This document shows positions 4,287 to 26,521 of a stretch of 40,764 bases of DNA, piece by piece. Source of the DNA: a virus (Duplodnaviria; Caudoviricetes); IMG/VR virus record IMGVR_UViG_3300024310_000017, positions 1-40,764 of that record; one strand, given 5' to 3'. The translations under genes were made by a program, and so were the position numbers. The notes beneath the pieces are model-generated. The model did no database searches, was not told where the DNA came from, and saw only the letters and a program-made list of their open reading frames with translations. The number at the start of each line of letters is the position of its first letter. Position 1 is the stretch's first letter.

Positions 4287-4627
4287 AAGAACCATTCGCC
4301 CTAATATTCCGTGAGGAGCGCGACGGGCGGCGTTATATGACCAATATTACCGCGACCCTTGAAGTCCACGCTCAACTATCAGTTGCTGACGATGTTCCAG
4401 TAGGGCAAAAGGAATATGCAAAGGAACATCTCCGCGAAATGATCATGCGCGAACTTTATGAGGACAAGCGCAGAGATTTCATTGAGGCAATGAACGAGTT
4501 CGAGATGATCCTTAACAGGCCATTCGAGCCGGGGTTTTTCGAGGCCAAAGAAAGATTGATGGGCTTATTGAAGCGGATGGCGCCGGATTTCACTTCGACG
4601 CCTAATCCTACTTCGCCAGCATGTTGA
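4283..4627 (+). CDS. Hypothetical protein
   Basis: 114 aa, last gene of the coupled + strand cassette. Confidence 0.7.
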   Translation: MKEPFALIFREERDGRRYMTNITATLEVHAQLSVADDVPVGQKEYAKEHLREMIMRELYEDKRRDFIEAMNEFEMILNRPFEPGFFEAKERLMGLLKRMAPDFTSTPNPTSPAC

Positions 4628-4778
4628 TCCCGCTGGCCTTGCCATTGACGATCCGGTCCGCGCTCATCTCGCGCACTGTCCACGTTCCATCAGGATTGTT
4701 GGTCGTCTCCTTGATATAGGGGTGCTCGATGGTTGAACAGCCGGCGCAGAACAGCAGCAGGAACAGGTAACATTTCAT
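4608..4778 (-). CDS. Small lipoprotein, 56 aa (absent from ORF track)
   Basis: Hand translation MKCYLFLLLFCAGC-STIEHPYIKETTNNPDGTWTVREMSADRIVNGKASGINMLAK; lipobox CAG|C. Confidence 0.75.
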   Translation of the reverse strand: MKCYLFLLLFCAGCSTIEHPYIKETTNNPDGTWTVREMSADRIVNGKASGINMLAK

Positions 4779-4784
4779 GGCGTC

Positions 4785-4822
4785 AAAAGAGCGGATGCGG
4801 CCAGAGCGTGAACCGCATCCGC
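4785..4822 (-). terminator. Intrinsic terminator near the end of the late operon
   Basis: Perfect 10-bp stem GCGGATGCGG (4791-4800)/CCGCATCCGC (4813-4822) followed by TCTTTT on the minus strand. Confidence 0.6.
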
Positions 4823-4976
4823 CGGGGACCGGGCGCCAGCTGTTGTCGGACTGGCGCTTGGGGTGGACCTTTTCTTCCGGCTGGCCCGCCGCAGATAAGC
4901 CCTGATCGCGTCAACCGTTTGTCGGTTGGATTCGACGGCGTGCCGTGGTTCCCAAGTTTTCTTGGGGATTGACGTA

Positions 4977-5222
4977 TTAAGCCGGAGGCGGCGGGGGCGT
5001 CAATGCGTCGAGAGCCTCCAGTTTTGTCGCGGCTGCCTCGGCTCGGGCCTGGATTCCGTCAAGGATGGCTTGGTCCTCCGGCGTAATCGCCCCGGCTGTT
5101 CCTTGGAGCCGCTTGATCTCGGCCACCAGGAAGTCCACATCGCCGGAAACTCCGGTGATGGCGGCATCCTGCCGATCCAAAAATGCGGTGACCTTGTCGC
5201 CGTAATCTTTAATTGCACTCAT
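4977..5222 (-). CDS. Small coiled-coil protein (paralogue of 5302..5577)
   Basis: Helical heptads; C-terminal EDQAILD...KLEALD; A-rich leader with AGGA. Confidence 0.8.
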   Translation of the reverse strand: MSAIKDYGDKVTAFLDRQDAAITGVSGDVDFLVAEIKRLQGTAGAITPEDQAILDGIQARAEAAATKLEALDALTPPPPPA

Positions 5223-5301
5223 CTATTTTCCTTTTGTTTCTGTTTTTGTTTTTGGCGAAACGTCGCCGTTTTCTGCGCCTATTCAGCGCAAAGTCAAATT
5301 C

Positions 5302-5577
5302 TCATATCTTCCGGTCGAGGGCTTCTAGCTTCATGCTCTGGGCCTGGATCCGCAGCAGGAGGGCGTCAAGTATGGCTTTGTCTTCTTCTGAAGTCGTTTG
5401 AATCGCTTCGATGGCCGACAACAGCTCGGACTTGAGATCCTCAAGGTCCGCTTTTGTCGCGCAATCCACGCCCTGATTCCCGCCTGGAACCAACTTCAGG
5501 ACCGCATCGGCGACGTGGTTTACAGCATTAACCAACGCCTTGTCTTGTGGACTGCTCATAATGCCAAAAATACTCAT
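5302..5577 (-). CDS. Small coiled-coil protein (paralogue of 4977..5222)
   Basis: TGATG overlap with OMP stop; EDKAILD...KLEALD. Confidence 0.75.
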   Translation of the reverse strand: MSIFGIMSSPQDKALVNAVNHVADAVLKLVPGGNQGVDCATKADLEDLKSELLSAIEAIQTTSEEDKAILDALLLRIQAQSMKLEALDRKI

Positions 5578-6098
5578 CAGAATTTCACGCTCAAAAAACC
5601 GCGAGTCATCAAGTCTTTGTCTTGCTTCATCCATGCTCGGATCCTGCTATCCACTCCCAAGCTGAAGTTGCGCGACAGCCGCAGTTCAGCGCCGACGCCA
5701 GCGCCGAATGCCCAATCCTCCGTTTCCCAGTTGCGGCTACCAGATCCCAAGAGGAATGCCACGAAACGATCTTTTCCAGCCCCACCAGTCTTGATCAAGT
5801 CAGCGCGAAACAGCGCCTCGGTCTCGTCGATCGAGCTGTGCTCAAACCAGCCCGCATGGTCATAATCGAAGACCGTATTGGCCAAATGAACGGACACCAC
5901 CCGGTTGATGTTGTATCCGAGATCCAGGCCTGCGCCCCAAACCGGCTTGCCGAAATCGGGATGGCTAACCGCGCCGTAGGGCGAGACCGAAAAGTCGGTC
6001 CACCAATTTTTGGGCGCGTCGTCTTGCGCCTGCGCTTTTGCAACAGTGAATAACGCCACGGCCAGGGCCGCGGCCCAGAGTTTCGGTGACGATTTCAT
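5577..6098 (-). CDS. Outer-membrane beta-barrel protein (8-strand Ail/Lom/OmpA-like type) with signal peptide
   Basis: Signal peptide MKSSPKLWAAALAVALFTVAKAQA; amphipathic strands WGAGLDLGY, FGAGVGAELRL, FSLGVDSR; C-terminal Phe BAM signal GFLSVKF. Confidence 0.85.
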   Translation of the reverse strand: MKSSPKLWAAALAVALFTVAKAQAQDDAPKNWWTDFSVSPYGAVSHPDFGKPVWGAGLDLGYNINRVVSVHLANTVFDYDHAGWFEHSSIDETEALFRADLIKTGGAGKDRFVAFLLGSGSRNWETEDWAFGAGVGAELRLSRNFSLGVDSRIRAWMKQDKDLMTRGFLSVKF

Positions 6099-6108
6099 AG
6101 GTGGTTTT

Positions 6109-6618
6109 TCAGCGAGGGATGGGTGCCGCCGTGGGGGTAAATGGGGCCTTCACTCGGCCGAATAGCATCGGCTCCATCGGGATTTGAACGAGCTCAATAC
6201 TGGCCGAATTACCGGCAGCCGACGTAATGCGCAACCGCTCGCGCCAATCGGTCAGATCTCGACTTAGTTCGAGTACTCCGGGAACCGGGGTCACGAAAGA
6301 AAACCCAACCGGCTGCAGATTGGATGGCGTCACTGGCGCCGGTGGCGAGATATACGGAACAGCCTCCCCGGATTCGCCCCAGAAATTGGTGCTCGTCACG
6401 GTGAAAATGCGTGGCGCTCCCACGGTCCAATTCTGGACGGTGAATCGGTTGGTCGTCGAGCCGCCAAGCAACACGCGCGTCGTGCCGACGATCTCGTAAA
6501 ACTTGAATCCAATCCCCGGCCCCGTTTGCGCGTCCCAGGTGAAGACCACATTCGTCGTAATGGCACCGCCGCTGATGGCGCCGGCGAGGGTCAGTAAGAC
6601 TGCGAATAGCGTTTTCAT
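6109..6618 (-). CDS. Exported FN3/Ig-like protein with verrucomicrobial-type C-terminal domain
   Basis: Signal peptide MKTLFAVLLTLAGAISGGA; FN3-like FTWD...FKFY...FTVTSTNFWGES; C-terminal LELSRDLTDW...FGRV. Confidence 0.75.
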   Translation of the reverse strand: MKTLFAVLLTLAGAISGGAITTNVVFTWDAQTGPGIGFKFYEIVGTTRVLLGGSTTNRFTVQNWTVGAPRIFTVTSTNFWGESGEAVPYISPPAPVTPSNLQPVGFSFVTPVPGVLELSRDLTDWRERLRITSAAGNSASIELVQIPMEPMLFGRVKAPFTPTAAPIPR

Positions 6619-6643
6619 TACGTTCCTCGGAAAACTTTAATAG

Positions 6644-6844
6644 TTAGATTCCATTTTGCCGGGTTTTTGGGCACATGCCCTTATGCTGGTACCCCACCAT
6701 AAAACTTTTTGTATTCATCCGTGGATGGCTGGCCCGAAAACCTTCCAACCCAGCAGAACCAGCAAAATACTCGGCCTTATATTTTGCCGTGGCGGGCGTC
6801 AGGGGCCACGATGACCAGAGTCCGAATAATAGCGATGTAGTCAT
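6644..6844 (-). CDS. Hypothetical protein
   Basis: ATGA-coupled to 6841..7137. Confidence 0.5.
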   Translation of the reverse strand: MTTSLLFGLWSSWPLTPATAKYKAEYFAGSAGLEGFRASHPRMNTKSFMVGYQHKGMCPKTRQNGI

Positions 6845-7137
6845 ATTTTGCCTTTCTCAACGTGTTCGGTTTCGGCTCTTTCTCGACGACGCTTGCTGAA
6901 ATCGTCGGCAGCGCGGCCCAGCGATTTGTCGATCCAGGCTATGTAAACGCTTGCTGAAGCGATGAACATCTTAACGCCCAGCCGAATAATGGAGAAATCC
7001 GACTGCGCTTTCCAATCAGCTTGGCTCCACGTCTCGGTATAAGAATCGAACAAAGTCAACGCTGGAAGGACGATCAGCAGTGCGGCCTTGATCCAAACGA
7101 GCCGGTAAGACCGCGTTACATCCAGCATATAGTTCAT
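6841..7137 (-). CDS. Two-TM membrane protein, holin candidate
   Basis: Two hydrophobic segments plus a charged C-terminus (KRRRERAETE); downstream of the tail genes. Confidence 0.5.
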   Translation of the reverse strand: MNYMLDVTRSYRLVWIKAALLIVLPALTLFDSYTETWSQADWKAQSDFSIIRLGVKMFIASASVYIAWIDKSLGRAADDFSKRRRERAETEHVEKGKI

Positions 7138-7141
7138 CGTT

Positions 7142-7651
7142 TCATTTCTTGAACATGAGCAGAACCGTCACGAGGCACCCGACCACGGCCAGGCCAACGG
7201 TGATTATCGTGACAAGCATTGCCGTAGTGATCGCTCGTGGCCCGCCCTGTTGGGTGACCACATACTCACTGATAGGCTTTATCGTGGCTTCGATCTTTTC
7301 GATGGCAGATTTTAATTCAGTCCGAGTCGGGTAATCGCCGCGCTCCTTGCTGATCTGCTCTCTGAGTTCATTGGCCTTTTCATCCTTGTAGGTTTGAATT
7401 TCCCGAGCCAAACCCAAAGCCGCGAGATCCGCGGTCTCTTTAATCTTCAGCGCCTTTTCCCGTTCCGTCGCGACCTCGGCATAGCGTCGATCTCGCTCAG
7501 CCTGGAATTTCTCTTCAGCCGCGCGCAAAGCTTCCTGGAGCCGGTCCGATTCCCGCATCGCCTCCCGAAGCTTCTCTTCGGCGGCACGCATGGCTTCGTT
7601 GTGAAGCCGATAACTTTCTATGTTCCAGACCGAATCTTGCTTGGTGTCCAT
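7142..7651 (-). CDS. Coiled-coil protein with C-terminal TM anchor
   Basis: EKLREA/EKFQAE coiled coil; TM AMLVTIITVGLAVVGCLVTVLLMF. Confidence 0.75.
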   Translation of the reverse strand: MDTKQDSVWNIESYRLHNEAMRAAEEKLREAMRESDRLQEALRAAEEKFQAERDRRYAEVATEREKALKIKETADLAALGLAREIQTYKDEKANELREQISKERGDYPTRTELKSAIEKIEATIKPISEYVVTQQGGPRAITTAMLVTIITVGLAVVGCLVTVLLMFKK

Positions 7652-7670
7652 ATCCCTTCACCTTGCCGAC

Positions 7671-8402
7671 CTATGGCAAAACGCCCTCGCGAGACATAAC
7701 GCGGTAAACAGCCTCGCCGTCGAAAACGTCGTAAAAGGCGTTCACTCCTTCTTCCCCGTCGATTTCTGGTGGCCGCAGTTCCCAATTCACCAGATCACGG
7801 GACCGCTGAAAGCTGTAGATGTGATTTGTGTGCGCATAAAACGAAACTCTGAACAGCCGACAATCGCAATCCGGGTCCATGATTGAGGCAGCTGTCAAAA
7901 CCAATCCTGGAGTTACCTCGCGCGGAAGCGGCGGAATCCGCACCGTCTGTGCTATCCTTGGTGAAAGCTGTGCAGCCATGGCCACACTGAAGGGACGCAA
8001 CCATGGAAGCGGACCGACGTTGCGAATTCTTACCAACCACTGATCTATTGTGATCGGATAAGGAAAGGTCCAGTTTGTTCCGGTCTCCGTCCAATTCCAG
8101 TTCCCGAAATCTCCACCGAGACTCGCCCACTGATTTCCGCAACGGGTCCAAGTGGTCCCGCCGTCAATGGTATATTCGGGGATCCAGATGTTATTTGTGT
8201 CCGGCAGCTGCCAGTAAGCAGCCCAGCCCTGATGAGGAATGCCCAAAGGATTGTTGGCCCCGGCAATGGTCGTGAGTCCGATCGTGGACGCAGTGACATC
8301 AGTTGCGAGGCGCAGATTTTGGGGCGCAGCCGGAGGGGATTGAGCCAGAGCTGCGAAGCAGACGAGAAAGAGGAGGGCGGGTTTAATTATATGACGTTTC
8401 AT
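7671..8402 (-). CDS. Exported protein with verrucomicrobial-type C-terminal domain
   Basis: ATG 8402 gives signal peptide MKRHIIKPALLFLVCFAALA-Q; PAAPQNLR; C-terminal YSFQRSRDLVNW...VYRV. Confidence 0.75.
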   Translation of the reverse strand: MKRHIIKPALLFLVCFAALAQSPPAAPQNLRLATDVTASTIGLTTIAGANNPLGIPHQGWAAYWQLPDTNNIWIPEYTIDGGTTWTRCGNQWASLGGDFGNWNWTETGTNWTFPYPITIDQWLVRIRNVGPLPWLRPFSVAMAAQLSPRIAQTVRIPPLPREVTPGLVLTAASIMDPDCDCRLFRVSFYAHTNHIYSFQRSRDLVNWELRPPEIDGEEGVNAFYDVFDGEAVYRVMSREGVLP

Positions 8403-8444
8403 TTTGGGATTAAGATTCGCTGCAAAGTCAGATTGCATTTTGCG

Positions 8445-8729
8445 TCATTCCTTCCCGTGCAATCTGCTCCAACAATCCGCGCAGACTACGCGAAGCCCCG
8501 CGGCCAATCGCACGACATGAAAATCTCCAGGAGGCACGTCAAAGCCCAAGCCGCATGATTGGCAGATGCAGCGGGCAGGCGGCGGATTCTCGCGCCACTT
8601 GTCCCAATACGTCTTGGCGATCTGGAACGCATGCTGGCAAAGCACGATGAGCACAATGATAGGCCCCCAGATGGGCGCGGTAATGGCCACGAGCGCGACC
8701 AGGAAACAATCGAGGAAGCGAAGAGTCAT
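8445..8729 (-). CDS. Membrane protein with CxxC/CxxC zinc motif
   Basis: Hydrophobic N-terminus; CQSC and CADC. Confidence 0.6.
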   Translation of the reverse strand: MTLRFLDCFLVALVAITAPIWGPIIVLIVLCQHAFQIAKTYWDKWRENPPPARCICQSCGLGFDVPPGDFHVVRLAAGLRVVCADCWSRLHGKE

Positions 8730-10564
8730 CTTACTGCGTCAGAAATTTCAAAGCGATTGCTGCCGGTCAGGAATCCGATATAACCCTCATTATTGGTGAC
8801 GGTGGCCATTGTCGATCCGTAGAGCCGCATCTGGCATGCGGCCGATGCGTTGATCGAGGCCACCGTATTGCTGGAGATAAGCACGCAATCCCGCAAGGTC
8901 GAGTTCGTGCCGGCCGTGGCGAACGAGAACGGATTGGCATACATCGATCCGATCTCGCGGGTGATGAGCTTGCAGTTGTCCAGATTCACCTCCGCGTCGC
9001 CCCATGTCTCCACGGCAATGCCAGACTGGGCCTCGATGGTGGCGCGTTTCACGGTAAGGGTCGAAGTATCTACACGCAGGCAGGGGCCGGCCCGAGACTT
9101 CAGCTTGAGCGCCTCGATGTAGATGAACGATCCGGCGTTGCACATATCCAGCAGGATGTCGTCGGTTTCAAAAACGCCATCTCCGGTGATGTAATTGGTG
9201 GTTGCTCCAAGGGTGCATTCGTCGAAGAAGAACTTCCCGAACGTGCTGTTGGTGTAGCGGGCGCCGTTGAAGAAGTGCCAGTTAATCGCTTTCTTGTGGA
9301 GGCTGTGCTCGTTATAGATACCGGGCAGAACCATGATCGTATCTCCGGCCACGGCATTGGTTTTAGCCATGCCCAGACTGGCGAACGGTTTATCCAGGCG
9401 CCCCCGGACTCCGGTCGCGTCGCTCCCGTTAACCTTATCGACCCAGAGAAGATTTCCGGTCGGAAGACTCGACAAGCCGCTGCCTCCAGCCGAGACGACA
9501 TTGAACACGACAGATGTTCCGGTCATCGTGAAATGCATGTTCGTTCCGGCCTCGACCGCAAGCATCCTATTGGTTACCCCAACCTTGTCCAACGCGAGCG
9601 GTTTGACCGTAGCGTTGGACGCCGCTGGGCTTCCAAGCACATTGGCTTCGCCGCCCCCCGTCGCTGATTGAACGGTGAAAAAGTTGGTTCCGCCGCGCGA
9701 AATGACAAACATCGCGCCGTAGTTGTTCGTGATGATCTTGCCGCTTGGGGAACCGTCGATGAAATCTCCGCTCTGAACGGCTACGGTAATGTTGCTGAGC
9801 GCGGCATTTCCGCCCTCGTCTTTGATCACGAACAACTGATTGCTGCAAGCTGCGGCATTGGTCAGCGTGAGCGTGACGGCGCCGGTCTTGGAATTGGCCC
9901 CGACATAAAAATCGTTTGTCATGATGGACAGGCTCCCCGCGGCGCGCTGCTTGCCCGACCATCCACCCCCCTGCCTGAATAAACCCGGCCCGATGCTCAG
10001 GGTGTCAAAGCTCACATTCCCCAGGAACGTCGGCAGTAAGAACGACCAGTTGCTCATTGCGCGCGCCGTCGCGTATTTGTCCAGGCCATAGACGAGCTCG
10101 TTAGCATTGTTTGTCCGATTGGTCTCCGGCAGCGTATCGAATGGCAACGCCAGATCGTATTGATTGGTGCCAGAAAGCGCGCTCGTCGTGATGCTGCACC
10201 AATCCCCCAGCTGCGTAGCCACCATCGAAACGCCGCTCAGAACAATGCTGTTGCTGCTGGCCCAGCGGACCGTCGTCCCGAGCGTCGGGTAATTGGCGAT
10301 CGCAAAGAACAGATTGGTCGTGCTTTGATTTGTCCCAAGTAGATTGGTCTGGATCGTGGTCGAGCTAAATTGGTTCGTCCACCGCAGCAATCGCGCCCCG
10401 CTCGAGGACGAGAAATAGAACACATTGCTCGTTACGGGCGCATTGGTGACCGTGACCGTGACGCGGGAAAGGCTGGCCCCTTGGACTTGCCGCACGGAGA
10501 GCATGTGCATTGCGGCAAGGAGCGCCAGGAGTGGGGCCAGCCTGAAATTAAAGTTGTGGCTCAT
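8726..10564 (-). CDS. Tail fibre/spike-like protein with C-terminal pectin-lyase-like beta-helix and an N-terminal signal peptide (612 aa)
   Basis: ATG 10564 gives MSHNFNFRLAPLLALLAAMHMLSVRQVQG-A. LWVDKVNGSD...KPFASLGMA...AGDTIMVLPGIYNE is a typical beta-helix cap. VIKDEGGNAALSNITV is a fibre motif. Confidence 0.78.
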   Translation of the reverse strand: MSHNFNFRLAPLLALLAAMHMLSVRQVQGASLSRVTVTVTNAPVTSNVFYFSSSSGARLLRWTNQFSSTTIQTNLLGTNQSTTNLFFAIANYPTLGTTVRWASSNSIVLSGVSMVATQLGDWCSITTSALSGTNQYDLALPFDTLPETNRTNNANELVYGLDKYATARAMSNWSFLLPTFLGNVSFDTLSIGPGLFRQGGGWSGKQRAAGSLSIMTNDFYVGANSKTGAVTLTLTNAAACSNQLFVIKDEGGNAALSNITVAVQSGDFIDGSPSGKIITNNYGAMFVISRGGTNFFTVQSATGGGEANVLGSPAASNATVKPLALDKVGVTNRMLAVEAGTNMHFTMTGTSVVFNVVSAGGSGLSSLPTGNLLWVDKVNGSDATGVRGRLDKPFASLGMAKTNAVAGDTIMVLPGIYNEHSLHKKAINWHFFNGARYTNSTFGKFFFDECTLGATTNYITGDGVFETDDILLDMCNAGSFIYIEALKLKSRAGPCLRVDTSTLTVKRATIEAQSGIAVETWGDAEVNLDNCKLITREIGSMYANPFSFATAGTNSTLRDCVLISSNTVASINASAACQMRLYGSTMATVTNNEGYIGFLTGSNRFEISDAVR

Positions 10565-11180
10565 GATGAATTTGTCCGCTGTCGTCGAAATAAACGAGGA
10601 TCGGGATTCCGCTGGGCCGGCTGAGCATAATGAAGCCGTCGCAGGGATTGGCCGGGTCGCTGCCATCCTTGGGAATGGCGATGGACTTAACCCAGGCTTG
10701 CGTTGCCCCGATTTCAACCGGAGGAATCGTGAGCGTCGCCGAGGTGATGTAGGTCTTCCTGAGCGTGACCGGCCGCTGATATGCCTTGATGATGTTGCCG
10801 CCCGAATCGGTCACCTGACATTCAAAAGTGCAATCCACTTTGACGGAGCCACCCAGGGCATTGGTTACCGCGGCGCTGTCATAGACAAGCGTCCCGACCT
10901 TGCTGGACGTTGGCGAAACGTCCGTGAACGTGTCCTGGAAAGCCAACTCGACATCGTTTGAGGTGCGGAACAGTCCGACCTTGAGCGAATAGGCTCCCGG
11001 AGCGACGAGGATCCACGGGATCTTGCTGTCCCCGCTCTCATTGCGGGTCATCAGCGTGTACTCGACTGATGGAGATTCACCGCGGTAAAAGTCCGGCAGA
11101 AAGAATTCATCCCGGCTCGTCGCGTGGGAAACCAACTTTTTGGAATCCACCACGTTGTAAAGTCGGAGCTGTTGCGCCAT
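10548..11180 (-). CDS. Baseplate/fibre anchor protein (BppU N-terminal-like)
   Basis: Position after tail-tip genes; Ig-like pattern FYRGESPSVEYTL...FECQVTDSGG; no signal peptide. Confidence 0.5.
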   Translation of the reverse strand: MAQQLRLYNVVDSKKLVSHATSRDEFFLPDFYRGESPSVEYTLMTRNESGDSKIPWILVAPGAYSLKVGLFRTSNDVELAFQDTFTDVSPTSSKVGTLVYDSAAVTNALGGSVKVDCTFECQVTDSGGNIIKAYQRPVTLRKTYITSATLTIPPVEIGATQAWVKSIAIPKDGSDPANPCDGFIMLSRPSGIPILVYFDDSGQIHHEPQL

Positions 11181-11202
11181 GTGATTTTTAGGGGTTAGTC
11201 AA

Positions 11203-12177
11203 CTATTCCCCAGGAACCCCGAAATCCATCGTTTCGTTTGGGTTGGCCATGATGTATGCGCTCGGCGGATTTGTGTCCCCAAGGAAAGCGCCGCCGCCGA
11301 ATAGTCCGGGATCGAACAGCGCAAACATATTGATCGCGTTCCCAATCTTGCCAGCAACAATTTCTCCCGTTCCGTTCGGAAATGCCTCGCCGGGATCGGG
11401 AGGCGGTCCAGTGGCCCATGTCCAGGGTCTGTTAGCTACTAGATCGAAATCCTGGATTTCATCGCGGAGCGTTTTGAACGGGCTCGAAGTAAAAAAGGCA
11501 TCACAGTTCCAGTATGCCACCAGTTTGTCGGCTTGCGGCGTGCTCGACAATCCGACACCGGCCCCACCATTCACATCAATGGTCGATTGTGCTTCGGTGA
11601 GGTAACTGCGCCAGATTGCGATCTCATCGTAATAAGCCACGGCGGAACCATCGAATTGTGACTCTCCATTTTCCCCGGTTGAACGCATTGTGAACCCCCA
11701 ACCGTCAGCAGCGGGCATCGGACCCATCGGGGGAACTTCAAGAAAATTTCGGATTATTGTAAAAAACGGCCCCTCATCTATCTCCATGAATATATGTCCA
11801 GAGCCGGTTGCTGTCTGCCTCACATAACCGGCAACGACATGCATATAATTTCCGATCGACGTGAAAGTGACGAGCTGGCTTGCTCGCACGTAAACTGTGC
11901 CATGGCTGCGGCATACCATTTCCAACCCATTCCCTCCGGCGCGGATGCCCCACCAATCCGAAGTTTCATCCTTAAACCACCGGAAGAGATAAAGTGGAAT
12001 CACTCCGGCGTCATATCCGAAATTAACCCCTTGGACATTGAGCGTGGTTTGCTTATACCAAAAGCGGAGGGTGAAGGTGCCGTCAAACTCATCCCGGACC
12101 ATCGCGTTGCGAATCGGAGACTCTTTCCCTACGTTGAATGCTCCACTTTCTGCCGGAGAGTTGAAATCGAACGGCAT
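11203..12177 (-). CDS. Tail-associated LamG/concanavalin-like protein
   Basis: FTLRFWYK, YMHVVAGY, YYDEIAIWRSYLT, LVAYWNCD, GKIGNA motifs. Confidence 0.7.
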   Translation of the reverse strand: MPFDFNSPAESGAFNVGKESPIRNAMVRDEFDGTFTLRFWYKQTTLNVQGVNFGYDAGVIPLYLFRWFKDETSDWWGIRAGGNGLEMVCRSHGTVYVRASQLVTFTSIGNYMHVVAGYVRQTATGSGHIFMEIDEGPFFTIIRNFLEVPPMGPMPAADGWGFTMRSTGENGESQFDGSAVAYYDEIAIWRSYLTEAQSTIDVNGGAGVGLSSTPQADKLVAYWNCDAFFTSSPFKTLRDEIQDFDLVANRPWTWATGPPPDPGEAFPNGTGEIVAGKIGNAINMFALFDPGLFGGGAFLGDTNPPSAYIMANPNETMDFGVPGE

Positions 12178-12180
12178 GCC

Positions 12181-15593: not shown

Positions 15594-16025
15594 TCAGGTG
15601 CTCGGCGTGCTGATGTCGGTCGAATACTGCATGCAGGGAAGTTTCATCTTCGCCTCTGCCTCGTTGGTAAACTCGATCGTGCCCCCGCCCACATAGATCC
15701 AGACATCGCTATTGAGATCGGCGCCGGCATGGTCGGCGAGCTCGATCTTGGATCCCGGGTCCGGTAGATGCATGTTCTCGGCCGCAAGCGCGATTGCCCC
15801 ATCGCCCGCCGGCGCAGTGGGGTAGAAATCGATCGATGCCTTCTTTGTCCGATTATAGAAGGTCATCCCGACGACTTCGCCCTTGCGATTCTTGTGCTCG
15901 TAGGTCTTGACCTGATCTTCAAAGGAAATTTTGGTGATCTCGGCGCCGCTGGCGGCAACGCCAGTGTATTGGATCGTCCCATCGATCCCGAACACCACCG
16001 CTTTTCCGATTTGGGATTCGGGCAT
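15594..16025 (-). CDS. Putative major tail tube protein
   Basis: 143 aa, beta-rich; synteny upstream of chaperone/TMP. Confidence 0.65.
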   Translation of the reverse strand: MPESQIGKAVVFGIDGTIQYTGVAASGAEITKISFEDQVKTYEHKNRKGEVVGMTFYNRTKKASIDFYPTAPAGDGAIALAAENMHLPDPGSKIELADHAGADLNSDVWIYVGGGTIEFTNEAEAKMKLPCMQYSTDISTPST

Positions 16026-16028
16026 AGG

Positions 16029-16406
16029 TTAAGTTTGGATAGCCAGGAAAACGATCTGTACGTCGGCCGTTGTTGCCTTCGCATAGAGCGTGGTCGTTCC
16101 GTTTGGAGAAGACACGGTTGAGCCAGTATTCGCGGCAATGGTCGCGATCGTATTTACCATCCCGTTATCAGTTGCGATATCGATCGGGTTTGCCGCGTCC
16201 AGATTTTTAACCAATAGATAGCCAAGCTGGCCTTCGGGGATGCTGTCGCCGATGTCCAGTTGCACGGGCGCGGATTCCGTGATTACCTGCGTTTGCTCCG
16301 TGTAATTCGTGCCGACCTGATCGACGTTCGTCGTGCTGGAAACAGAAGCAGTGGATGCAGAACCGGCAACTTTCAGCGTGATGGTTTGAGTGATCTTGTT
16401 AGCCAT
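16029..16406 (-). CDS. Virion protein, paralogue 3 of tandem triplet
   Basis: ATG 16406 MANKITQTITL; LGYLLVKNLD motif. Confidence 0.75.
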   Translation of the reverse strand: MANKITQTITLKVAGSASTASVSSTTNVDQVGTNYTEQTQVITESAPVQLDIGDSIPEGQLGYLLVKNLDAANPIDIATDNGMVNTIATIAANTGSTVSSPNGTTTLYAKATTADVQIVFLAIQT

Positions 16407-16414
16407 AAAAAGAG

Positions 16415-16789
16415 TTAGAGTTGCGCTGCCCAGACCGTCACATCGCAGGCCGCCGTGTTGGCCCTGATCCAATACGCAGCGGTTCCGCTGTGGGCACAAA
16501 TGAATGCGAACTTTAGCGGAGGAATCTTGGCGAAAATCTTCGTCCCGCCGCTGTCGATGGCGACTTCGATGTAATTGGTTGAGCTTCCGTTTTTAAAATA
16601 AACGTAGCCCAGATCGGACGTGATTGCCCCGAGGTAAACGGAGGTCCATGTAACGGTCGGGAAATTCTGGATGGCATAATAGCCAAATCCCCCGACCGCA
16701 ACTTGGAGGGTTGATAGTGACGCACTGGTCGCCAGTGGCGGCACACTGGAGAGGGACAACGAAATTGAACCTGTAACTGTTTTTGCCAT
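16415..16789 (-). CDS. Virion protein, paralogue 2 of tandem triplet
   Basis: MAKTVTGSISL; LGYVYFKNGS motif. Confidence 0.75.
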   Translation of the reverse strand: MAKTVTGSISLSLSSVPPLATSASLSTLQVAVGGFGYYAIQNFPTVTWTSVYLGAITSDLGYVYFKNGSSTNYIEVAIDSGGTKIFAKIPPLKFAFICAHSGTAAYWIRANTAACDVTVWAAQL

Positions 16790-16795
16790 AAAAAT

Positions 16796-17230
16796 TTATG
16801 CGGCCATTATTACAGCGTCATAGAGAACCGAATCGCTACCTGTAATCATGTAGTTGGCCACGCCGGTTGGAGCGCCGAGATTGCTCATGCCTCGCCCGAT
16901 CCTCACCAACATCGCCTCGCCTGGGTACAATCTCGCTATCTCTAAACCATACTGATATGAGATTTGATCCGGGTTGACGACAAAGATGTAAATAAACTCG
17001 CCTATTGGGTCGATATTTTTCACCCATAGCCATCCAGGAGTTCCACCCAGTATTGGATAGACATTAGTTGCCAATGGGATCGCCTGGCTGAAGTCTGGCG
17101 CTAACCCGATCATGCGAACAAATCTTTTCGTCGTGGGCGTCTCAATGACGGTTGAAGTTGCATTCAGGATCTGAACGCTTGGCGTCGGAGAAAATGAAAT
17201 CGTTGCTGTGGCGGAGATTTCGTTGGCCAT
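16796..17230 (-). CDS. Virion protein, paralogue 1 of tandem triplet
   Basis: MANEISATATISF; PGWLWVKNID motif. Confidence 0.75.
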   Translation of the reverse strand: MANEISATATISFSPTPSVQILNATSTVIETPTTKRFVRMIGLAPDFSQAIPLATNVYPILGGTPGWLWVKNIDPIGEFIYIFVVNPDQISYQYGLEIARLYPGEAMLVRIGRGMSNLGAPTGVANYMITGSDSVLYDAVIMAA

Positions 17231-18411: not shown

Positions 18412-18735
18412 TCAGCGGTTAATGCTGATCAGGTCAAGCCAAAGGAAGACGTTATGAATGATGCGGACCCGCCGAATCTTATAGACAACTCCCTCAAACG
18501 TCGCGTGCTCGCCTGAAATCGGAAGAACGTTGTCGGCGAAAGATGAACGGTTCAGCCGTAGCTTAAGCGAAATCTCCTCCGGGTTTCCATCAGGGCCGAT
18601 AACGATCTCATTACTATATGTGTTGCTCATGCAGTCGTAATCGGAACCTTTCCAAGTTACGACCGACGGAAGATCGACCTGCGCCTCCGCGATGTCTGCC
18701 TCGATTTGTTTTTCGAGCGCAGTCTTGTCTGGCAT
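18412..18735 (-). CDS. Head closure / head-tail joining protein (FII-like)
   Basis: 107 aa; PISGEHATFEGVVYKIRRV pattern; synteny. Confidence 0.6.
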   Translation of the reverse strand: MPDKTALEKQIEADIAEAQVDLPSVVTWKGSDYDCMSNTYSNEIVIGPDGNPEEISLKLRLNRSSFADNVLPISGEHATFEGVVYKIRRVRIIHNVFLWLDLISINR

Positions 18736-18762
18736 TCTTCAGCAATGTTCCATGTGGAACTT

Positions 18763-19191
18763 TTAGCGCGTGGCTGGCTTAATCGAATAGCTCACGGTCA
18801 CATTCGTAAGCGCCACTGCATTGACGTTCTCGACCGTAGAGGGCCGAAGATAGCCCGTCGCACCAAAGGTCAGATTAGTAATGAAATTGGTCGTGGTGGC
18901 AGCCACGACTAAAGACGGCGTTGTTTCCCACGTGGTGCCATTGAGGCTTCGGGCAAAGCGGACGGTGCAATTACTGTTGCCGGCCACGGGCATCTTGAAA
19001 CTGACGAACACCCCGATCTGCTCATCCTGGAGCAGTCGCATTACCGGAACCGTGTAGGTGTTCGTTGCTGCCGCGGCGACATTGTTGGTTCCACCGCTAA
19101 TAAGCGTGACCACGCCATAGCTCTGGGCATTGGCCATGGTGGAGACGCACAGCAAGAGAAGGGTAAGTAACGCGGTTTGAATGGTCTTCAT
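18763..19191 (-). CDS. Signal-peptide-bearing beta-sandwich protein in the capsid-decoration position
   Basis: MKTIQTALLTLLLLCVSTMANA-Q; RFARSLNGTTW...GYLRP; 5 TN dipeptides. Confidence 0.75.
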   Translation of the reverse strand: MKTIQTALLTLLLLCVSTMANAQSYGVVTLISGGTNNVAAAATNTYTVPVMRLLQDEQIGVFVSFKMPVAGNSNCTVRFARSLNGTTWETTPSLVVAATTTNFITNLTFGATGYLRPSTVENVNAVALTNVTVSYSIKPATR

Positions 19192-19445
19192 TTCTTCGTT
19201 TTCTTTGTAATTGGAATCGATACCGGAACCGGCGGTTCCTGTACTCGCGATGACTTAGGCGTGATTGCCGGCCGGGCCCGTCGGGTAATTACCCCGTTTT
19301 CAATCATCGCCACATCGGATAGGTAAACGTTCCGGGAATTGTCACGGAACACGGCCAGTGCCCGGACCGGATCAAAGCTAGCGTGGAGGAGCTCCAGCTT
19401 CCCATCTACAGTCTCACCGATGACAATGCGCGCGCGTGAGATCAT
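19188..19445 (-). CDS. Hypothetical protein downstream of major capsid
   Basis: Abuts the capsid stop; ATGA-coupled downstream. Confidence 0.65.
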   Translation of the reverse strand: MISRARIVIGETVDGKLELLHASFDPVRALAVFRDNSRNVYLSDVAMIENGVITRRARPAITPKSSRVQEPPVPVSIPITKKTKK

Positions 19446-20366
19446 TTAACTGCTAATGACGAGCACGCCGGTCTTGCCGTTGTTTGTCTCATTGCCCTTG
19501 GCAACGCCGTACATCCAGACGATGCGGGTATTGACATTGAGGGTATCGGGCTCGATCCATTCGTTGACCATCACGGAGAGGCCGGTTCGTGGATCTGTAA
19601 CGATGCCGATATTGCCTGGGAAACCCGCATTCGGTAGAACCTCGCGCGGATCTTTGGGCACGCGGCAGGCCATGATGCAAGTGGCATAGTAGCCTGCGAA
19701 GCCGACCATATTGCCCGTGGTAGGCATCGCGGGATATTCGGCTAACTGCAATCCAGCGACATTGGGCAACAATCCCGACGTGATGGCGTTCTGATTGCCG
19801 GGATTGTTGAACGCGGCAACAATCTTTGGATCGGTCAGCAGCGATGCATAGACATCTGAGTTCGCAATGTAATAGCGCCTCATATCTGGGACGCCCATCG
19901 TGTTGAGCGTCTTGCGGACATCGACCAAATGATCGTAATCCCAGCCGGCGCCCATCGTGATAGGGGTGGTCGTGAAGTTCGCCGCCGTCCAGAGCGCGGC
20001 GACAGCATCAACCATATGATTGGCCATGGCGACCGCGAGCGGTTCGGCACTTTCCTCGATGAGATTGCGCGACGTTCCGCTGTATTGCTGCGGCGTAAAT
20101 GCGTGATAAACCTGCTTGAATTTGTCTAGCGTAATGCTGACATCGAGATCCGAGCGCGTACCGACAGCATCGCCGAAATCGCCAACCACGGCATTGGCAA
20201 AGGTGCGCGTGATGACATTCTGGCCGAAATACGCGACGGGCGAGCCGGTCTCGCGATCTACCACGTCTAGGGCGATGAGCCGCAGCGCGGGCCGCATGGT
20301 GTAAATGAGTTCCAGAGCGCGCTGGACGATCAGCGAGGTGGCCAGTGTGCCGAGTGTGTTGGGCAT
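19446..20366 (-). CDS. Major capsid protein (HK97 fold, P22-coat-like)
   Basis: MPNTLGTL; VSITLDK; AVAMANHMVD; RKTLNTMGVP..RR; MYGVAKG; follows protease and scaffold. Confidence 0.88.
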   Translation of the reverse strand: MPNTLGTLATSLIVQRALELIYTMRPALRLIALDVVDRETGSPVAYFGQNVITRTFANAVVGDFGDAVGTRSDLDVSITLDKFKQVYHAFTPQQYSGTSRNLIEESAEPLAVAMANHMVDAVAALWTAANFTTTPITMGAGWDYDHLVDVRKTLNTMGVPDMRRYYIANSDVYASLLTDPKIVAAFNNPGNQNAITSGLLPNVAGLQLAEYPAMPTTGNMVGFAGYYATCIMACRVPKDPREVLPNAGFPGNIGIVTDPRTGLSVMVNEWIEPDTLNVNTRIVWMYGVAKGNETNNGKTGVLVISS

Positions 20367-20389
20367 AGATCAGAGAGTTTTAGAAAGAA

Positions 20390-20851: not shown

Positions 20852-20888
20852 TCTGAGAATCCCAGCGGGAGTCAACCGTCAGTGGCTT

Positions 20889-21704: not shown

Positions 21705-21716
21705 AGAATGAGATGC

Positions 21717-22151
21717 CTAGTCATCAAGTAAGAGAAGGGCGACCGCCTCCTCTTCCCAGCGCGTGTCCAGCACACGACGGCCTCGGGCTAGAGATCGGGC
21801 TTGGGGCGCAATGACGCGACCGCTGGCCAGGACTGGAGCCAGGTTGCGCCCGTGTTGCGCCTTGGCTGGGAACGCCGAGCCTCGGATGGCTCTGCCGGAG
21901 CCCGAGACGAGCATGATCGTTCCGAGTCCCTGGCTTTGACCGGCAGCGCGGATCGCCGCGCCTTGGCCGGATATTTCCTGGACGTATTGGCGCCGATAGG
22001 ATGGGCGCCACTCGAAGATCCGCGGGATCCGCCGGCGCCGCTTTTCGGGCCGTCCATCGCCCTTTCCTGGGGCCGGGCTTGGCGGCGCTACAACCGGCTG
22101 ATCCGAAACCTCGCCAAAATACGGTTCCCCAAATTGGAACTCGCCAAACAT
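21717..22151 (-). CDS. Hypothetical virion protein
   Basis: MFGEFQFGEPYFGE N-terminus and EEEAVALLLLDD C-terminus; packed in the operon. Confidence 0.65.
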   Translation of the reverse strand: MFGEFQFGEPYFGEVSDQPVVAPPSPAPGKGDGRPEKRRRRIPRIFEWRPSYRRQYVQEISGQGAAIRAAGQSQGLGTIMLVSGSGRAIRGSAFPAKAQHGRNLAPVLASGRVIAPQARSLARGRRVLDTRWEEEAVALLLLDD

Positions 22152-22580
22152 TTATGGAGGCCCGCCCAGTCCGGCCGTGGTGCTGACCTCAACTTTGAGC
22201 GGTTTCTTAGCCGTGGCAGCGAGCAGCAGATGAAGCTCGATCTTGTTGGCGCTGACAGTTCCCATCCAACAGTTGAACGACGGGCAGGATGTAGACGCGC
22301 CCGTGGTGAGGTTCGTAGCGAGCAAGGTCAGTGGAGTTCCCGGAGGCAAATTGTGCTGCGTGCACGTCGGGCAAGCCCGAGGCTTTTGCACGTAGATTTG
22401 AAAATTCTGGATGCCAAACCAACAAGTGGTCAGATCCCATGAGATGACCTGCTCGATTCCAGGCTGAAGCGTGAGCGGCAATCCGCCATTCATCGCTTTC
22501 ATCAGTTCGATCTCGCATTGGGTTTGAGCCATAAGCGAGAACGGCAGAATCGAGAACAGGAATAGGAGTTTTGTTTTCAT
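22152..22580 (-). CDS. Exported Cys-rich small protein
   Basis: Signal peptide MKTKLLFLFSILPFSLMA-Q; six Cys. Confidence 0.75.
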   Translation of the reverse strand: MKTKLLFLFSILPFSLMAQTQCEIELMKAMNGGLPLTLQPGIEQVISWDLTTCWFGIQNFQIYVQKPRACPTCTQHNLPPGTPLTLLATNLTTGASTSCPSFNCWMGTVSANKIELHLLLAATAKKPLKVEVSTTAGLGGPP

Positions 22581-25500
22581 TATCTAGGCCCAGGGCTCCA
22601 ACGGATTCGCCTATAGTCGTTGGTGATTGCAGCGACAACCCGCGAAGTTCCCTGGAAAGCAAAAATGTTGGTCGTGCCATTCACCTGAGCCAATGGCATG
22701 TTGGTCCTGTAAGCTGTGAGCGCGGCATTTCCGAACGATCCCGCGGCCGGGCTCTGCGCGATGACTTCGGCCTCAACACGCTGAGCGGAACCCCCGGTGC
22801 CCGTGATGGTGATAATCGCTTTCCAGGGACAGTTGCTAATGGTCAGGAATCCGGTGTCAAACACCGTAGAGGTGCCATAAATGCATTTGAATCCGTTGGT
22901 GTTCGCCGTTCCGAATTTGAAATTGCCGGAAAGGTAGAATTCAAGCTCGTCTCCGACGTTGGTGAGCGTATTTCCCGGAACCGTGAACGTGAATAGATTC
23001 GTGTACACAGCGGTGGCCTGAAGATTTGTCGTTGCGGTGACCGCATCCAGGAACACTGTGCCCCCCATCCATGCGTTACTAGTTCCTGCTCCGGCCGAGA
23101 TCGGAATTGCCTTGTTTAGGATCGGTCGCTGCGAGGTCGTTGCCCATCTGGCTATGATGTTGGTCGCCGGGCCGGTGGCATTGGTCGTCACGTCGAACCA
23201 GAACGCATAGACCTGATTTGAATGGATCAGAACGTCGATGGCGTTGGCATTGGTCGGCGAATTCATCCACCGGATGTTGGCGGCTGCCGCAGTGAAAGTG
23301 TAATTGTAATCCGCCGCCGCGGCAGTATCCCCGACGACGTAAACGATCATGGAAGCGCCTCCTACCGCATTCGTGAGGTTATTTGTGCGGCTGCCAGTGA
23401 TTGCATTGGTCATCGTCTTGATCCTGGCTCCAGTGAAATCCAGGTTTGTGAACACGGTCTTGCCGTTGAACTCCTCCGTCGTGATGTAATTAGTCAAGAC
23501 CGACGACCCGCCCTGCCGGCTGTTCCATGTGTTGGTCGAAAAGTTGACCCAATTGTTCAGCTCGCCAATGGTATCGACGAAATTGGTTCCGCCTGATGTC
23601 CTCACCGAAGTATTGCTGCCGCCGAAAACCTGATTCGTATATCCGGTATAAGAGATGGCTGTGAGATTGGTCAGGCGCGTGTTTCCTGGCTGGAACGATC
23701 CAGACCAGCTGAGCCCGCCCGATCCGTCGTTGGCTAAAACCGTGCTCGCGCCGCCCTGCGCACTCGGCCAGGAATAGGCGACTCGTTTTAACAGCTTGAG
23801 ATCACCGATTCCGTCAACCTCAAAAACCGGAGTGTTCGAGTTTTGCAAACTCAAAAGCGTGTCGGTATTCGTCAGTTCATACCAAGTGTTGAACATGTAG
23901 TTGGTGGGGTAGGTTAGCCCAATGCCTGGAGACAAGAAAACGCCGCGTTCACCCGATCCAATTTTATCAGTCAGCTTTAATGTGGAGTTGGTGAAGTTAT
24001 CCGCGGTGACAGCAAATATGCATTGTTTATTAACTCCATCGAAAGTTCTCATGGTAAGTTCGGAGGAATTAGTATTCACCCCGAACAGGCAGGTTCCGAA
24101 GTAGCCAACTGTGCTTTGGGCGGCTTTGGTCTGGATGAACGCCGAATTGGGCTCACCGATGGTTGTGTCACGTATGGCATTAAAAGCGTAGAGATTTACC
24201 GGAGTGGCGTTGTTTCTACCGATGAAAACACCGCCAAATGGGCCAACCGTTAGCGCATTGCTCCCTCCATTGTATATGTTGAAAAGTTTGCTGGCGGCGT
24301 TTGCCCTATATGTTCTGGCATCCCAATAGAAGTTTGTCCCGACCCCATCATCGGGCACATCGACGCGCAACAGGATGTTGGTTGGAAAAGAGATCGGATT
24401 TAGCGAGACTGTGTTGTTAGTCCAGACCAGATCCGCGTAGTTCGTAATCGCTCCGGTGCCCGCGAGATTCGTCAGTATTGCTGAGCCACCCTGCCGATCA
24501 TTCCAGACGTTCGTCGGATAGAGGCTCCAGTTGAAATCTGCAGCAGAATTCGTGAGATCACCCTGGGCATTGATTACCGCATTCTGTGAAACGGCAAGAT
24601 GCGGGAGATTGAGCGCCTGATACACAAGCAAGTTGGTAAGGAACGCACCATTTTTGATCGCCAGTGGAACTCCTAGAAACTGATTTGCATTCGTGCTTAA
24701 CCCCGAAGCGCCCGCACTTGTCTTGTCCACATTCCACCCCAGATTTCCCGCTCCGTCATTGGTCAGAACAAACCCGTCTGAACCGTAAGCTGATGGGAAA
24801 GCATAAATCAAATTCCGGAAAACGTATTGCGTGACGTTGGTCCCGAACATTATCTGATTGTTTGCCGTGATCCTAGAATTGGCCCCGAGCGCGACCGAAT
24901 TGGTCAGAAATCCGCTGATCGCTGTGGCTCCATTACCAACGGCGACCATGTTCGTGATATCATCCACTCCGTCAAATGTTCCGCGGCCAATAGCTACGAC
25001 AGAATCGGGCCGATCGGCGTTGTGCATTGATTCAAAACCGACGGCTAGATTGTAGCTTCCTCCACCCTGCGCGTTCAGCATTGCGCTATGACCCAAAGCC
25101 GTGTTGCCAAGACCCTGCAACTTATCAAGCGCGCCCCAACCCAATGCCGTGCCGTAATACGAATCGGTTAAAGCATCCATTGTTGAGGATCCGATGGCGG
25201 TGTTTTCAAATCCAGTCACGAACCCCTGCAACGCTTGGTAACCGACTGCTGTGTTGTCGCTGCGATATTGGTTCTGCTCCAATGCTCCTTTTCCGACCGA
25301 CGTGTTAAACGACCCACTTGAATTGCTGTAGCTAGAATGGTGCCCGATTGCCGTGTTAGCTTCGGTTCCTCCTCCTAGGCTCAGCGCATCCTGCCCGATT
25401 GCTGTGTTATAAAATCCACCTAAATCTGGCAGAGCATTACTTCCGAAGGCGGTGTTTGTCCCGTCCGCCCTAATCAACCGGCCGAAAATTCGGTTTGTTG

Positions 25501-26521
25501 CGAAAGTGATCCTGGGCTGGTCCACGACTGGATAGAGATCGCCTGCTGCATTTGTCCAGACCAGATCGGCGTAGTTCGTGATCGCGCCTGTGCCCGCAAG
25601 ATTTGTCAGGATCGCACTGCCCCCCTGCCGAGAATTCCAAACGTTCGTTGAATAGATCGCCCAGTTATTGAGTTGTCCGGTCGTATCGACAAAGTTCGTG
25701 CCTCCCGCCGTCCGCACGGAGATATTGGTCCCGCCAAAAACTTGGTTTGTGTAACCCTTGTAAGAATTCCCGGCGAGGTTGGTCAGTGTCGCATCGGCAG
25801 GCTGAAAGTCTGTGGCGTTGGTCAACGCGCCAGTGCCCGAAAGATTAGTCAGAATCGTACTGGCAGGCTGCCGCTGGGTGATCCAATTAGTGACAGAAGC
25901 TGAGTTCGTGGCCGCTGTTACGTAGTTACTGACCGCGTTGGCCCAGTTGGTAAGGAACGTCGTGGATACCACGTTGGCCATTGTTCCTGTCGGAATGTTC
26001 GACCAATTAGTGAGATTGGCACTAGCTGGCTGGAAGTCCGCCGCATTCGTGAGCGCGCCAGTCCCAACGATATTGCTGAGGACCATGCTGGACGCCTGAA
26101 AGTCGGAGGCATTCGTCAGCGCCCCGGTGCCTTCAAGGTTGGTCAATATGAGAGAGCCACCCTGGCGACTGTTCCAAATGTTTGTGGTGTATTGGCTCCA
26201 GTTGGTCAACGCTTCGCTGGCGGGTTGGAAATCCGATGCGTTGGTCAAGGCTCCGGTCCCGGAGAGATTGGTCAGGATGGTGCTAGCTGGTTGGAATGGT
26301 CCTCCGGCTGCGCCCGCGGCCGAACCGTGGATGATATATCCGGTTCGGTTTGTCTTCTCCAGATAGATATTGCTTCCAGCCCAAAGATTCCCGAAGAAAA
26401 AGTTTGTCGGCGCGACCAGTCGTCCGGTTGAGTTGGTGGCCATAACGCTTCCGACAAACTGGGCCGCTCCCAGCCCGAGTCCGAGCATCGAGGCGACGAA
26501 GATCAGGAAAAGTTTTCTCAT
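22580..26521 (-). CDS. Giant repetitive fibre/adhesin-like protein with signal peptide and YadA-head-like repeats (1313 aa)
   Basis: ATG 26521 gives MRKLFLIFVASMLGLGLGAA-Q; ~14-aa NTAIG..AL repeats; internal duplications; PSA.G....L.NDG.G.L.W fibre motifs. Confidence 0.8.
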   Translation of the reverse strand: MRKLFLIFVASMLGLGLGAAQFVGSVMATNSTGRLVAPTNFFFGNLWAGSNIYLEKTNRTGYIIHGSAAGAAGGPFQPASTILTNLSGTGALTNASDFQPASEALTNWSQYTTNIWNSRQGGSLILTNLEGTGALTNASDFQASSMVLSNIVGTGALTNAADFQPASANLTNWSNIPTGTMANVVSTTFLTNWANAVSNYVTAATNSASVTNWITQRQPASTILTNLSGTGALTNATDFQPADATLTNLAGNSYKGYTNQVFGGTNISVRTAGGTNFVDTTGQLNNWAIYSTNVWNSRQGGSAILTNLAGTGAITNYADLVWTNAAGDLYPVVDQPRITFATNRIFGRLIRADGTNTAFGSNALPDLGGFYNTAIGQDALSLGGGTEANTAIGHHSSYSNSSGSFNTSVGKGALEQNQYRSDNTAVGYQALQGFVTGFENTAIGSSTMDALTDSYYGTALGWGALDKLQGLGNTALGHSAMLNAQGGGSYNLAVGFESMHNADRPDSVVAIGRGTFDGVDDITNMVAVGNGATAISGFLTNSVALGANSRITANNQIMFGTNVTQYVFRNLIYAFPSAYGSDGFVLTNDGAGNLGWNVDKTSAGASGLSTNANQFLGVPLAIKNGAFLTNLLVYQALNLPHLAVSQNAVINAQGDLTNSAADFNWSLYPTNVWNDRQGGSAILTNLAGTGAITNYADLVWTNNTVSLNPISFPTNILLRVDVPDDGVGTNFYWDARTYRANAASKLFNIYNGGSNALTVGPFGGVFIGRNNATPVNLYAFNAIRDTTIGEPNSAFIQTKAAQSTVGYFGTCLFGVNTNSSELTMRTFDGVNKQCIFAVTADNFTNSTLKLTDKIGSGERGVFLSPGIGLTYPTNYMFNTWYELTNTDTLLSLQNSNTPVFEVDGIGDLKLLKRVAYSWPSAQGGASTVLANDGSGGLSWSGSFQPGNTRLTNLTAISYTGYTNQVFGGSNTSVRTSGGTNFVDTIGELNNWVNFSTNTWNSRQGGSSVLTNYITTEEFNGKTVFTNLDFTGARIKTMTNAITGSRTNNLTNAVGGASMIVYVVGDTAAAADYNYTFTAAAANIRWMNSPTNANAIDVLIHSNQVYAFWFDVTTNATGPATNIIARWATTSQRPILNKAIPISAGAGTSNAWMGGTVFLDAVTATTNLQATAVYTNLFTFTVPGNTLTNVGDELEFYLSGNFKFGTANTNGFKCIYGTSTVFDTGFLTISNCPWKAIITITGTGGSAQRVEAEVIAQSPAAGSFGNAALTAYRTNMPLAQVNGTTNIFAFQGTSRVVAAITNDYRRIRWSPGPR

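Follow-up and report, generated by a model that had tools for sequence, protein, structure and literature searches.

Predicted Sec leaders on decoration- and fibre-like proteins of a lambda-like siphophage: a putative periplasmic step in virion maturation

The 40,764-base virus record IMGVR_UViG_3300024310_000017, analysed here at its full length (the window), is rated complete and carries in its late region eight genes whose products start with predicted export signals. The minus strand holds almost every gene of the window, and every window gene given below by both its end coordinates lies on that strand. The contig ends overlap inside a single gene for an SNF2 helicase and DNA methylase (40129..40764 and 1..1713), which argues that the genome is circularly permuted and complete. 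Matches to PHROG and Pfam cover the small and large terminase subunits, a lambda-family portal (27379..29103; PF05136, phrog_21), an S49 protease, the major capsid protein (19446..20366; phrog_283/267, a homologue of the capsid protein of Verrucomicrobia phage P8625) and a tape measure protein of 459 amino acids (aa); the portal and the capsid protein have no leader. The window is a near-complete lambda-like siphophage. None of the 60 main and 47 further open reading frames (ORFs) matched integrase, holin or endolysin families in PHROG or Pfam, and a tRNA search of the window found none.

Leaders were called by a crude rule of our own, which asks for a basic n-region, a hydrophobic core and a small-x-small cleavage site. 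All eight ORFs listed as exported in the initial annotation open where it had placed them, each with these three elements. The rule flagged 9 of the 59 called ORFs, i.e. the eight and 2913..3170, and none of 149 internal-Met controls; in relatives it gives some false calls, for example holin-like ORFs and P8625_08. The ninth, outside the late region, is an 85-aa ORF with a twin-arginine-like leader. The least typical leader of the eight is that of 8726..10564, and the lipobox of 4608..4778 is slightly off the consensus (Cys at −3). The coupling of several leader genes to structural genes was also found as described: ATGA overlaps at 26521 and 19191, TAATG at 22580 and a 17-bp overlap at 10564 join them to the genes upstream, which supports the start codons. 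Together the eight ORFs occupy 8,574 of the 40,764 bp (21%, in agreement with the estimate of roughly a fifth of the genome); the structural modules account for 6,639 bp of this and the genes downstream for 1,935 bp. Their common orientation with the structural genes is real but carries little weight, since nearly all genes are on the minus strand. The idea of a single secretome stood only in part: four of the genes are in virion modules, and the other four (7671, 6109, 5577 and 4608) follow the tail genes and look like envelope proteins or morons.

The gene 18763..19191 stands at the position of capsid cement or decoration genes. According to its model, synteny and profile, the product (gp18763) is a jelly-roll protein with a predicted Sec leader and four conserved Thr-Asn (TN) sites. 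The model is an all-beta jelly roll behind the leader helix (predicted local distance difference test score, pLDDT, 75). Its best fold match was XepA (Z 10.3, root-mean-square deviation 4.9, 119 aligned residues, 12% identity), with GOLD domains (Z about 9) and YomS (Z 8.2, 9% identity) further down; since all of these match, the fold is a generic one. XepA (PBSX) and YomS (SPbeta) are described as prophage-encoded beta-sandwich proteins from lysis-cassette genes of Bacillus (PMC6834076), and sharing their fold shows no function. The family is large: a 9-row profile gathered 1,678 clusters with E 0.001 as the limit and 697 with the stricter 1e-10. Among the best 150 relatives 139 were flagged for a leader, although the profile included the leader and the ranking is therefore biased toward leader-bearing matches. 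Of the 11 unflagged relatives, six are extended at the N-terminus ahead of an internal hydrophobic segment, four look truncated, and in one the rule missed the leader. In a 135-row alignment the identity to the query was 21% in the leader as against 38% in the mature part, position −1 of the predicted cleavage site was Ala, Gly or Ser in all 135 rows, and position +1 was Gln in 122 of them. The columns of the four Thr-Asn pairs rank with the best conserved ones of the alignment.

The survey of leaders at syntenic positions in relatives, which the initial annotation had proposed, supported it beyond the leader counts. The major capsid gene was the long frame directly upstream of the jelly-roll gene in 20 of the 30 genome loci listed, and these capsid genes belong to four PHROG families (247, 10, 283/267 and 1005). 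Viral and metagenome loci agree on the post-capsid placement, in HK97-like, lambda-like and Mu-like layouts. With the 135-row profile the family was found in 36 of 401 genomes for the order of genome G007, which we take to be Limisphaerales; the 9-row profile gave 3 of 401 for the order of G006, a count not comparable with the former. In the window a small leaderless protein (19188..19445) is encoded between the capsid and jelly-roll genes and is ATGA-coupled. Small genes occupy the same place in 8 other loci (at an identity of only 11–29%), and the protein is a candidate cytoplasmic partner of gp18763. A relationship of its family to P8625_12 was considered, and no match was obtained.

The jelly-roll domain also occurs in larger chains. 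In 4 of the best 150 relatives it heads a fibre-like chain of 354–1,043 aa. The Mu-like prophage L008 encodes two members of the family: the first follows the capsid gene (6796-7359), and the second forms the head of a 1,050-aa repeat fibre (9980-13132), which carries an esterase-like segment. Some loci encode, directly after the capsid gene, fused chains in which a small cytoplasmic-type domain is followed by an internal segment that looks cleavable and by the jelly roll (L110:1198-1956, L133:1459-2109, L135:988-1896, L108:889-1914, P0057, P0073, P0126, P0142 and P0153); no ATG lies near the hydrophobic segment in L110, L133, L135, P0057, P0126 and P0142. Such fusions suggest a physical link between the cytoplasmic and periplasmic sides. 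Two capsid proteins of relatives (L035:8316-9413 and L002:7920-9419) start with long hydrophobic leader-like extensions, which the capsid protein of the window does not have. Locus L117 (G618:C126) carries two tandem jelly-roll genes with no capsid match upstream, possibly host-captured or non-head copies.

A second virion module with leader genes is proximal to the portal gene. The giant fibre- or spike-like protein of 1,313 aa (22580..26521) has a predicted Sec leader and 62 TN dipeptides; its residues 355–467 match the tail spike family phrog_4636 (E 1e-21), and the protein matches 18 phage records, many of them annotated as tail fibre, tail spike or virion structural protein. It is ATGA-coupled to 26518..26937, a leaderless stand-alone fibre N-terminal domain predicted to dock on the virion (8jov_1; phrog_8469, phrog_30299 and phrog_38058). 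This domain matches residues 19–129 of the 439-residue tail fibre of Ralstonia phage GP4 (8jov_1, E 3e-12), itself a protein without a leader. Upstream of it, the leaderless 26941..27378 (phrog_3758) is related to Milano gp127 and a virion protein of 7-7-1 and to KPP25 ORF006, the last at E 2e-12 in a test with seven sequences. KPP25 ORF006 corresponds to A1002 gp40 by length and gene order, and 26941..27378 is thus likely, judged by homology and position, to be a subunit of a chain-like fibre dimer. Homology of 26941 to the 140-aa protein of GP4 was also checked and no match was found. The idea that the first 33 residues missing from A1002 gp41 represent a leader was rejected, as the matching KPP25 ORF007 has none. 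On the other side of the giant fibre gene, and coupled to it, is 22152..22580, which codes for a 142-aa protein with a predicted Sec leader and five Cys in the mature part and has no family match in PHROG, Pfam or a further family search. The module is closed by the leaderless 21717..22151, placed here by its position and by a look-alike at the same place in relative G008; it is possibly an adaptor or rope.

The tail-tip region repeats this arrangement. A 612-aa fibre- or spike-like protein at the tail position (8726..10564; 19 TN; weak match to phrog_20556, E 2.5e-4) has a predicted Sec leader, and its gene overlaps 10548..11180, which encodes a leaderless tail-tip protein and predicted fibre anchor. 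Two colinear stretches in the N-terminal region of the leaderless P8625 tail fibre align with the 10548 family, at 12.1 bits where 500 shuffles reached 6.9 at most (hhalign E 4e-4). By inspection, eight of the nine non-self relatives of the 8726 fibre start with a leader, and the ninth matches its C-terminal 22% only. A sequence search of the PDB gave no match for the giant fibre, the 8726 fibre or the 10548 profile. The leader fibres do not have a virion-docking domain at their own N-terminus; the matching domain is a separate upstream gene. Homologues of 10548 precede leader fibres in G003, G004 and G008. Both modules recur in G008 with unrelated leader proteins, of which two follow the 26518 homologue and four the 10548 homologue; G004 carries a single unrelated leader protein in each slot, and L035 has one in the head slot. 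Judged by the ORF list and PHROG, no full-length fibre without a leader is available in the window as an alternative receptor-binding protein.

The leader proteins are also set apart by a dipeptide bias. They contain 93 TN dipeptides where 27.7 are expected from their own composition (3.4-fold), whereas 21 leaderless structural proteins contain 12 against 13.5 expected (0.9-fold); the reversed dipeptide NT is not enriched (0.7-fold). In nine related phages, after Arg-rich ORFs had been dropped as shadow frames, 31 flagged ORFs had 257 TN against 91 expected and 136 unflagged ORFs 102 against 104. Glycosylation, which had been mentioned as a reason for a periplasmic route, is not supported in its canonical N-linked form: N-x-S/T sequons number 46 against 44.3 expected, the bias lies in the Thr-Asn dipeptide instead, and none of 5 host genomes, all incomplete, gave an STT3 match (the control was detected in 4 of 14). 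Thr-Asn may be a periplasmic modification motif. In host contigs (L145-L164, six genomes of the order of G007) TN is over-represented proteome-wide (1.6–2.1-fold), and Asn-Thr and Ser-Asn are not.

The BPP-1 cementing protein (3j4u_H), Milano gp10, Xacm4-11 gp26 and phi24B gp67 resemble gp18763 in being beta-sandwich proteins of about 120–150 aa encoded near the major capsid gene. A cement gene beside the capsid gene is usual, as with gp25/gp26 of Xacm4-11, and the jelly-roll minor capsid protein gp10 of Milano adjoins gp9. A conserved predicted leader and TN sites are noted for gp18763 only, and its binding to the capsid is a prediction. The chain-like modules of A1002/KPP25 and Milano (gp125/127) and the fibre of GP4 have components homologous to 26941 and 26518, the A1002 fibre subunit being the likely counterpart of 26941 through KPP25 ORF006. 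The statements on phi24B, Xacm4-11, A1002 and Milano, here and below, draw jointly on four sources (10.64898/2026.04.10.717836; 10.64898/2026.02.16.706137; PMC13730344; PMC10491603). The leaderless fibre of GP4 has the anchor domain as its own N-terminus, whereas the window encodes this domain in a gene by itself, with the gene for a leader-bearing fibre after it. Phage P8625 has homologous portal, capsid, tape measure and tail-tip anchor regions in the same gene order, but its fibre is fused and leaderless, no jelly-roll gene follows its capsid gene, and it has no TN bias. Leader-bearing virion proteins, as proposed for the window, are on record for a cultured tailed phage: gp085–087 of Cellulophaga phage phi18:3, whose host belongs to Bacteroidota, are annotated as structural by tandem mass spectrometry (MS/MS), and all three have leaders, in contrast to none of the nine other MS-annotated proteins in the 46 kb examined. 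The likeness noted here is one of leaders and structural annotation. Filamentous phages have virion proteins with Sec leaders as well, pVIII and pIII; these form the membrane-embedded coat of extruded particles, whereas those of the window would be soluble appendages of an HK97-fold tailed particle. The initial annotation knew of no described system of this kind, and searches of full-text literature (subscription journals mostly outside) likewise gave no account of Sec-routed appendages of tailed phages; the phi18:3 record, however, already contains leader-bearing virion proteins, unremarked in its annotation.

On balance it seems probable that the decorations and fibres are exported by Sec, mature in the periplasm and dock at lysis on particles built in the cytoplasm. 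Late transcripts would supply the cytoplasm with heads, tails and short anchors, while the decoration and fibre precursors would pass through Sec and be cut at Ala|Gln. The exported proteins would fold in the periplasm, where they may be modified at Thr-Asn, and would bind the leaderless anchors on the particles once the inner membrane fails at lysis. This reading is built on leaders called by a heuristic, gene coupling, conserved positions, the jelly-roll model, the homology of neighbouring genes to fibre N-termini and the TN bias; docking as such is read from gene anatomy. It is favoured because the jelly-roll gene follows capsid genes of four families (20 of 30 loci), because the leader diverges faster than the mature part in a large leader-bearing family, and because the jelly-roll domain heads fibre-like chains in 4 of 150 relatives. 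It also draws on the match of 26518 and 10548 to the N-termini of leaderless fibres and their adjacency to leader fibres, on the unrelated leader proteins that fill the same slots in G008, G004 and L035, and on the lack of a leaderless full-length fibre in the window. The TN bias, which marks leader proteins and not leaderless structural ones and is absent from P8625 with its leaderless fibre and no jelly-roll gene, and the MS/MS-annotated leader proteins of phi18:3 point the same way. Synteny, split anchors and a cultured precedent give good support to the putative periplasmic route and docking at egress that had been suggested, though not for all eight genes.

Several observations weigh against this reading. 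The window proteins are known from their genes alone, their virion location being predicted, and MS of phage preparations picks up envelope morons too: preparations of phi24B contain Bor and Lom, both classed as contaminants by the authors. The best fold match of gp18763, XepA, is a lysis-cassette protein, and the link to cement proteins by sequence is weak (top PDB match 3j4u_H, E 0.2); no cement chain was among the top 50 fold matches in either of two fold searches. Of the other ten among the 30 loci, seven have no head-gene match upstream, one has a prohead protease only and two are untestable. The match of 10548 to P8625 is modest and its model poor (pLDDT 42), 22152..22580 is not TN-rich, and L035 contains one TN-rich leaderless ORF. 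In hosts the bias is less selective: among 400 kb from six genomes of the order of G007, TN reached 2.1-fold in 28 flagged and 1.6-fold in 169 unflagged soluble proteins (in G007 itself 1.4-fold and 1.0-fold, respectively). No TN bias was seen in the host samples of G006 and G193, and the phage contig of G006 may, for this reason, be mis-binned.

The leader proteins might instead all be envelope morons (adhesins, receptor masks or superinfection exclusion factors) that act on the infected or lysogenic cell and never enter the virion. This suits 5577, 4608, 7671 and 6109, two relatives (G005 and G193) are prophages with host flanks, and the TN bias extends to some exported host proteins. Such a role, however, leaves unexplained the fixed adjacency to four capsid families, the coupling to stand-alone fibre N-terminal domains and the absence of another fibre from the window. 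The coupled genes also leave no room for promoters of their own, promoters are not in excess (7 found against 10.3 expected with a sigma-70 consensus that may not suit the host), and no integrase match was obtained in the window. For the eight proteins as a whole we consider this explanation unlikely.

Free factors exported late for escape or spread, such as XepA-like lysis helpers, soluble depolymerases or decoys, would fit the lytic-cassette proteins XepA (Z 10.3) and YomS (Z 8.2) as top folds, the lack of an endolysin family match among the 107 Pfam-scanned ORFs and the pectate-lyase-like domain of a leader protein in L037. Z values of 8–10 are, however, common to unrelated jelly rolls (Z 9 for GOLD domains), the jelly-roll gene tracks the capsid gene and not the lysis region, and the split anchors would be left without a partner, all of which makes free factors quite improbable. 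The hydrophobic segments could also stay uncleaved and, as anchors, hold assembly in the cytoplasm to the inner membrane, the following domains being inside. The relatives with a small cytoplasmic-type domain fused before the segment and the two capsid proteins with hydrophobic N-terminal extensions agree with this, yet the invariably small residue at −1 (135 of 135) and the Gln at +1 (122 of 135) look like a cleavage site, and the basic residues before the core place the mature domain outside by the positive-inside rule. Uncleaved tethers therefore appear very unlikely.

The four downstream genes 7671, 6109, 5577 and 4608 lie downstream of the tail genes, in a stretch of small genes for membrane proteins, and ordinary envelope or lysis morons are the likely assignment. 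The leader protein 7671..8402 ends in a host-type domain, its C-terminal 60 aa weakly matching three host proteins (E 8e-4 to 4e-3; 3 of 61 genomes), and 6109..6618 has an FN3-like part (weak match to NF041611, E 0.003) and a host-type C-terminal motif. Both proteins have a C-terminal motif also seen at the end of several host proteins and are likely, on these matches, to be envelope proteins, 7671..8402 probably lying outside the virion. The proposal that 5577..6098 is an outer-membrane protein was confirmed by a PF13505 match (E 2e-7; 31.8 bits over a cut-off of 28.7; aa 10–71 only) and a C-terminal Phe, which indicate a small Lom-like beta-barrel. The 56-aa predicted lipoprotein 4608..4778 is assigned by its lipobox, has no family match and may be a Bor-like moron or an o-spanin. 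Lom and Bor of lambda are a small outer-membrane barrel and a lipoprotein encoded as morons in the late region; 5577 and 4608 resemble them in kind, and this parallel accounts for the four downstream genes only. In the same region (4608..8729), 6841 and 7142 have membrane segments and are candidates for holin or spanin roles.

The host is probably a member of Verrucomicrobiota, since both named genome matches of the gp18763 profile are Verrucomicrobia metagenome-assembled genomes and P8625 is the only cultured phage matched by the window capsid protein; the earlier guess of a Verrucomicrobiota phage fits these matches. Single-protein scans of viral contigs with the capsid and terminase proteins gave no match, and the capsid query matched none of five records, in which local BLAST and PHROG showed other capsid families. 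Four consecutive genes for Thr-rich beta-type proteins of similar size stand at the tail-tube position (15594..17230), which suggests several tube or tube-accessory paralogues. In a RecT-like annealing protein (38097..40076) an insert breaks the conserved sequence between about aa 184 and aa 503; it is bounded by Cys...His-Asn-Cys and is presumably an intein with an endonuclease domain. The early region includes a membrane-anchored protein (35950..36363) matching phrog_11227 and phrog_200.

In the textbook view, the whole assembly of tailed phages takes place in the cytoplasm. The folds of the parts described here are known, but for tailed phages such a route would be a novelty. Its wider form, advanced only tentatively and more doubtful than not, is that in a large group of tailed phages of Verrucomicrobiota the core and anchors would be cytoplasmic, the decoration and all fibres periplasmic and host-marked at Thr-Asn, with fusions tethering capsids to the inner membrane opposite the exported decoration. 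If the periplasmic route is real, virion maturation has a step open to the folding and modification systems of the host, and on the Thr-Asn reading the particles would leave dressed in host-type modifications. The labels 'membrane protein' and 'moron' would then be wrong for many phage genes, and recombinant work on such fibres would need periplasmic expression. The post-capsid family of 1,678 clusters offers a compact marker. The bacterial lineage concerned is abundant and little studied, and the Thr-Asn bias points to a modification motif in it that may not be known yet.

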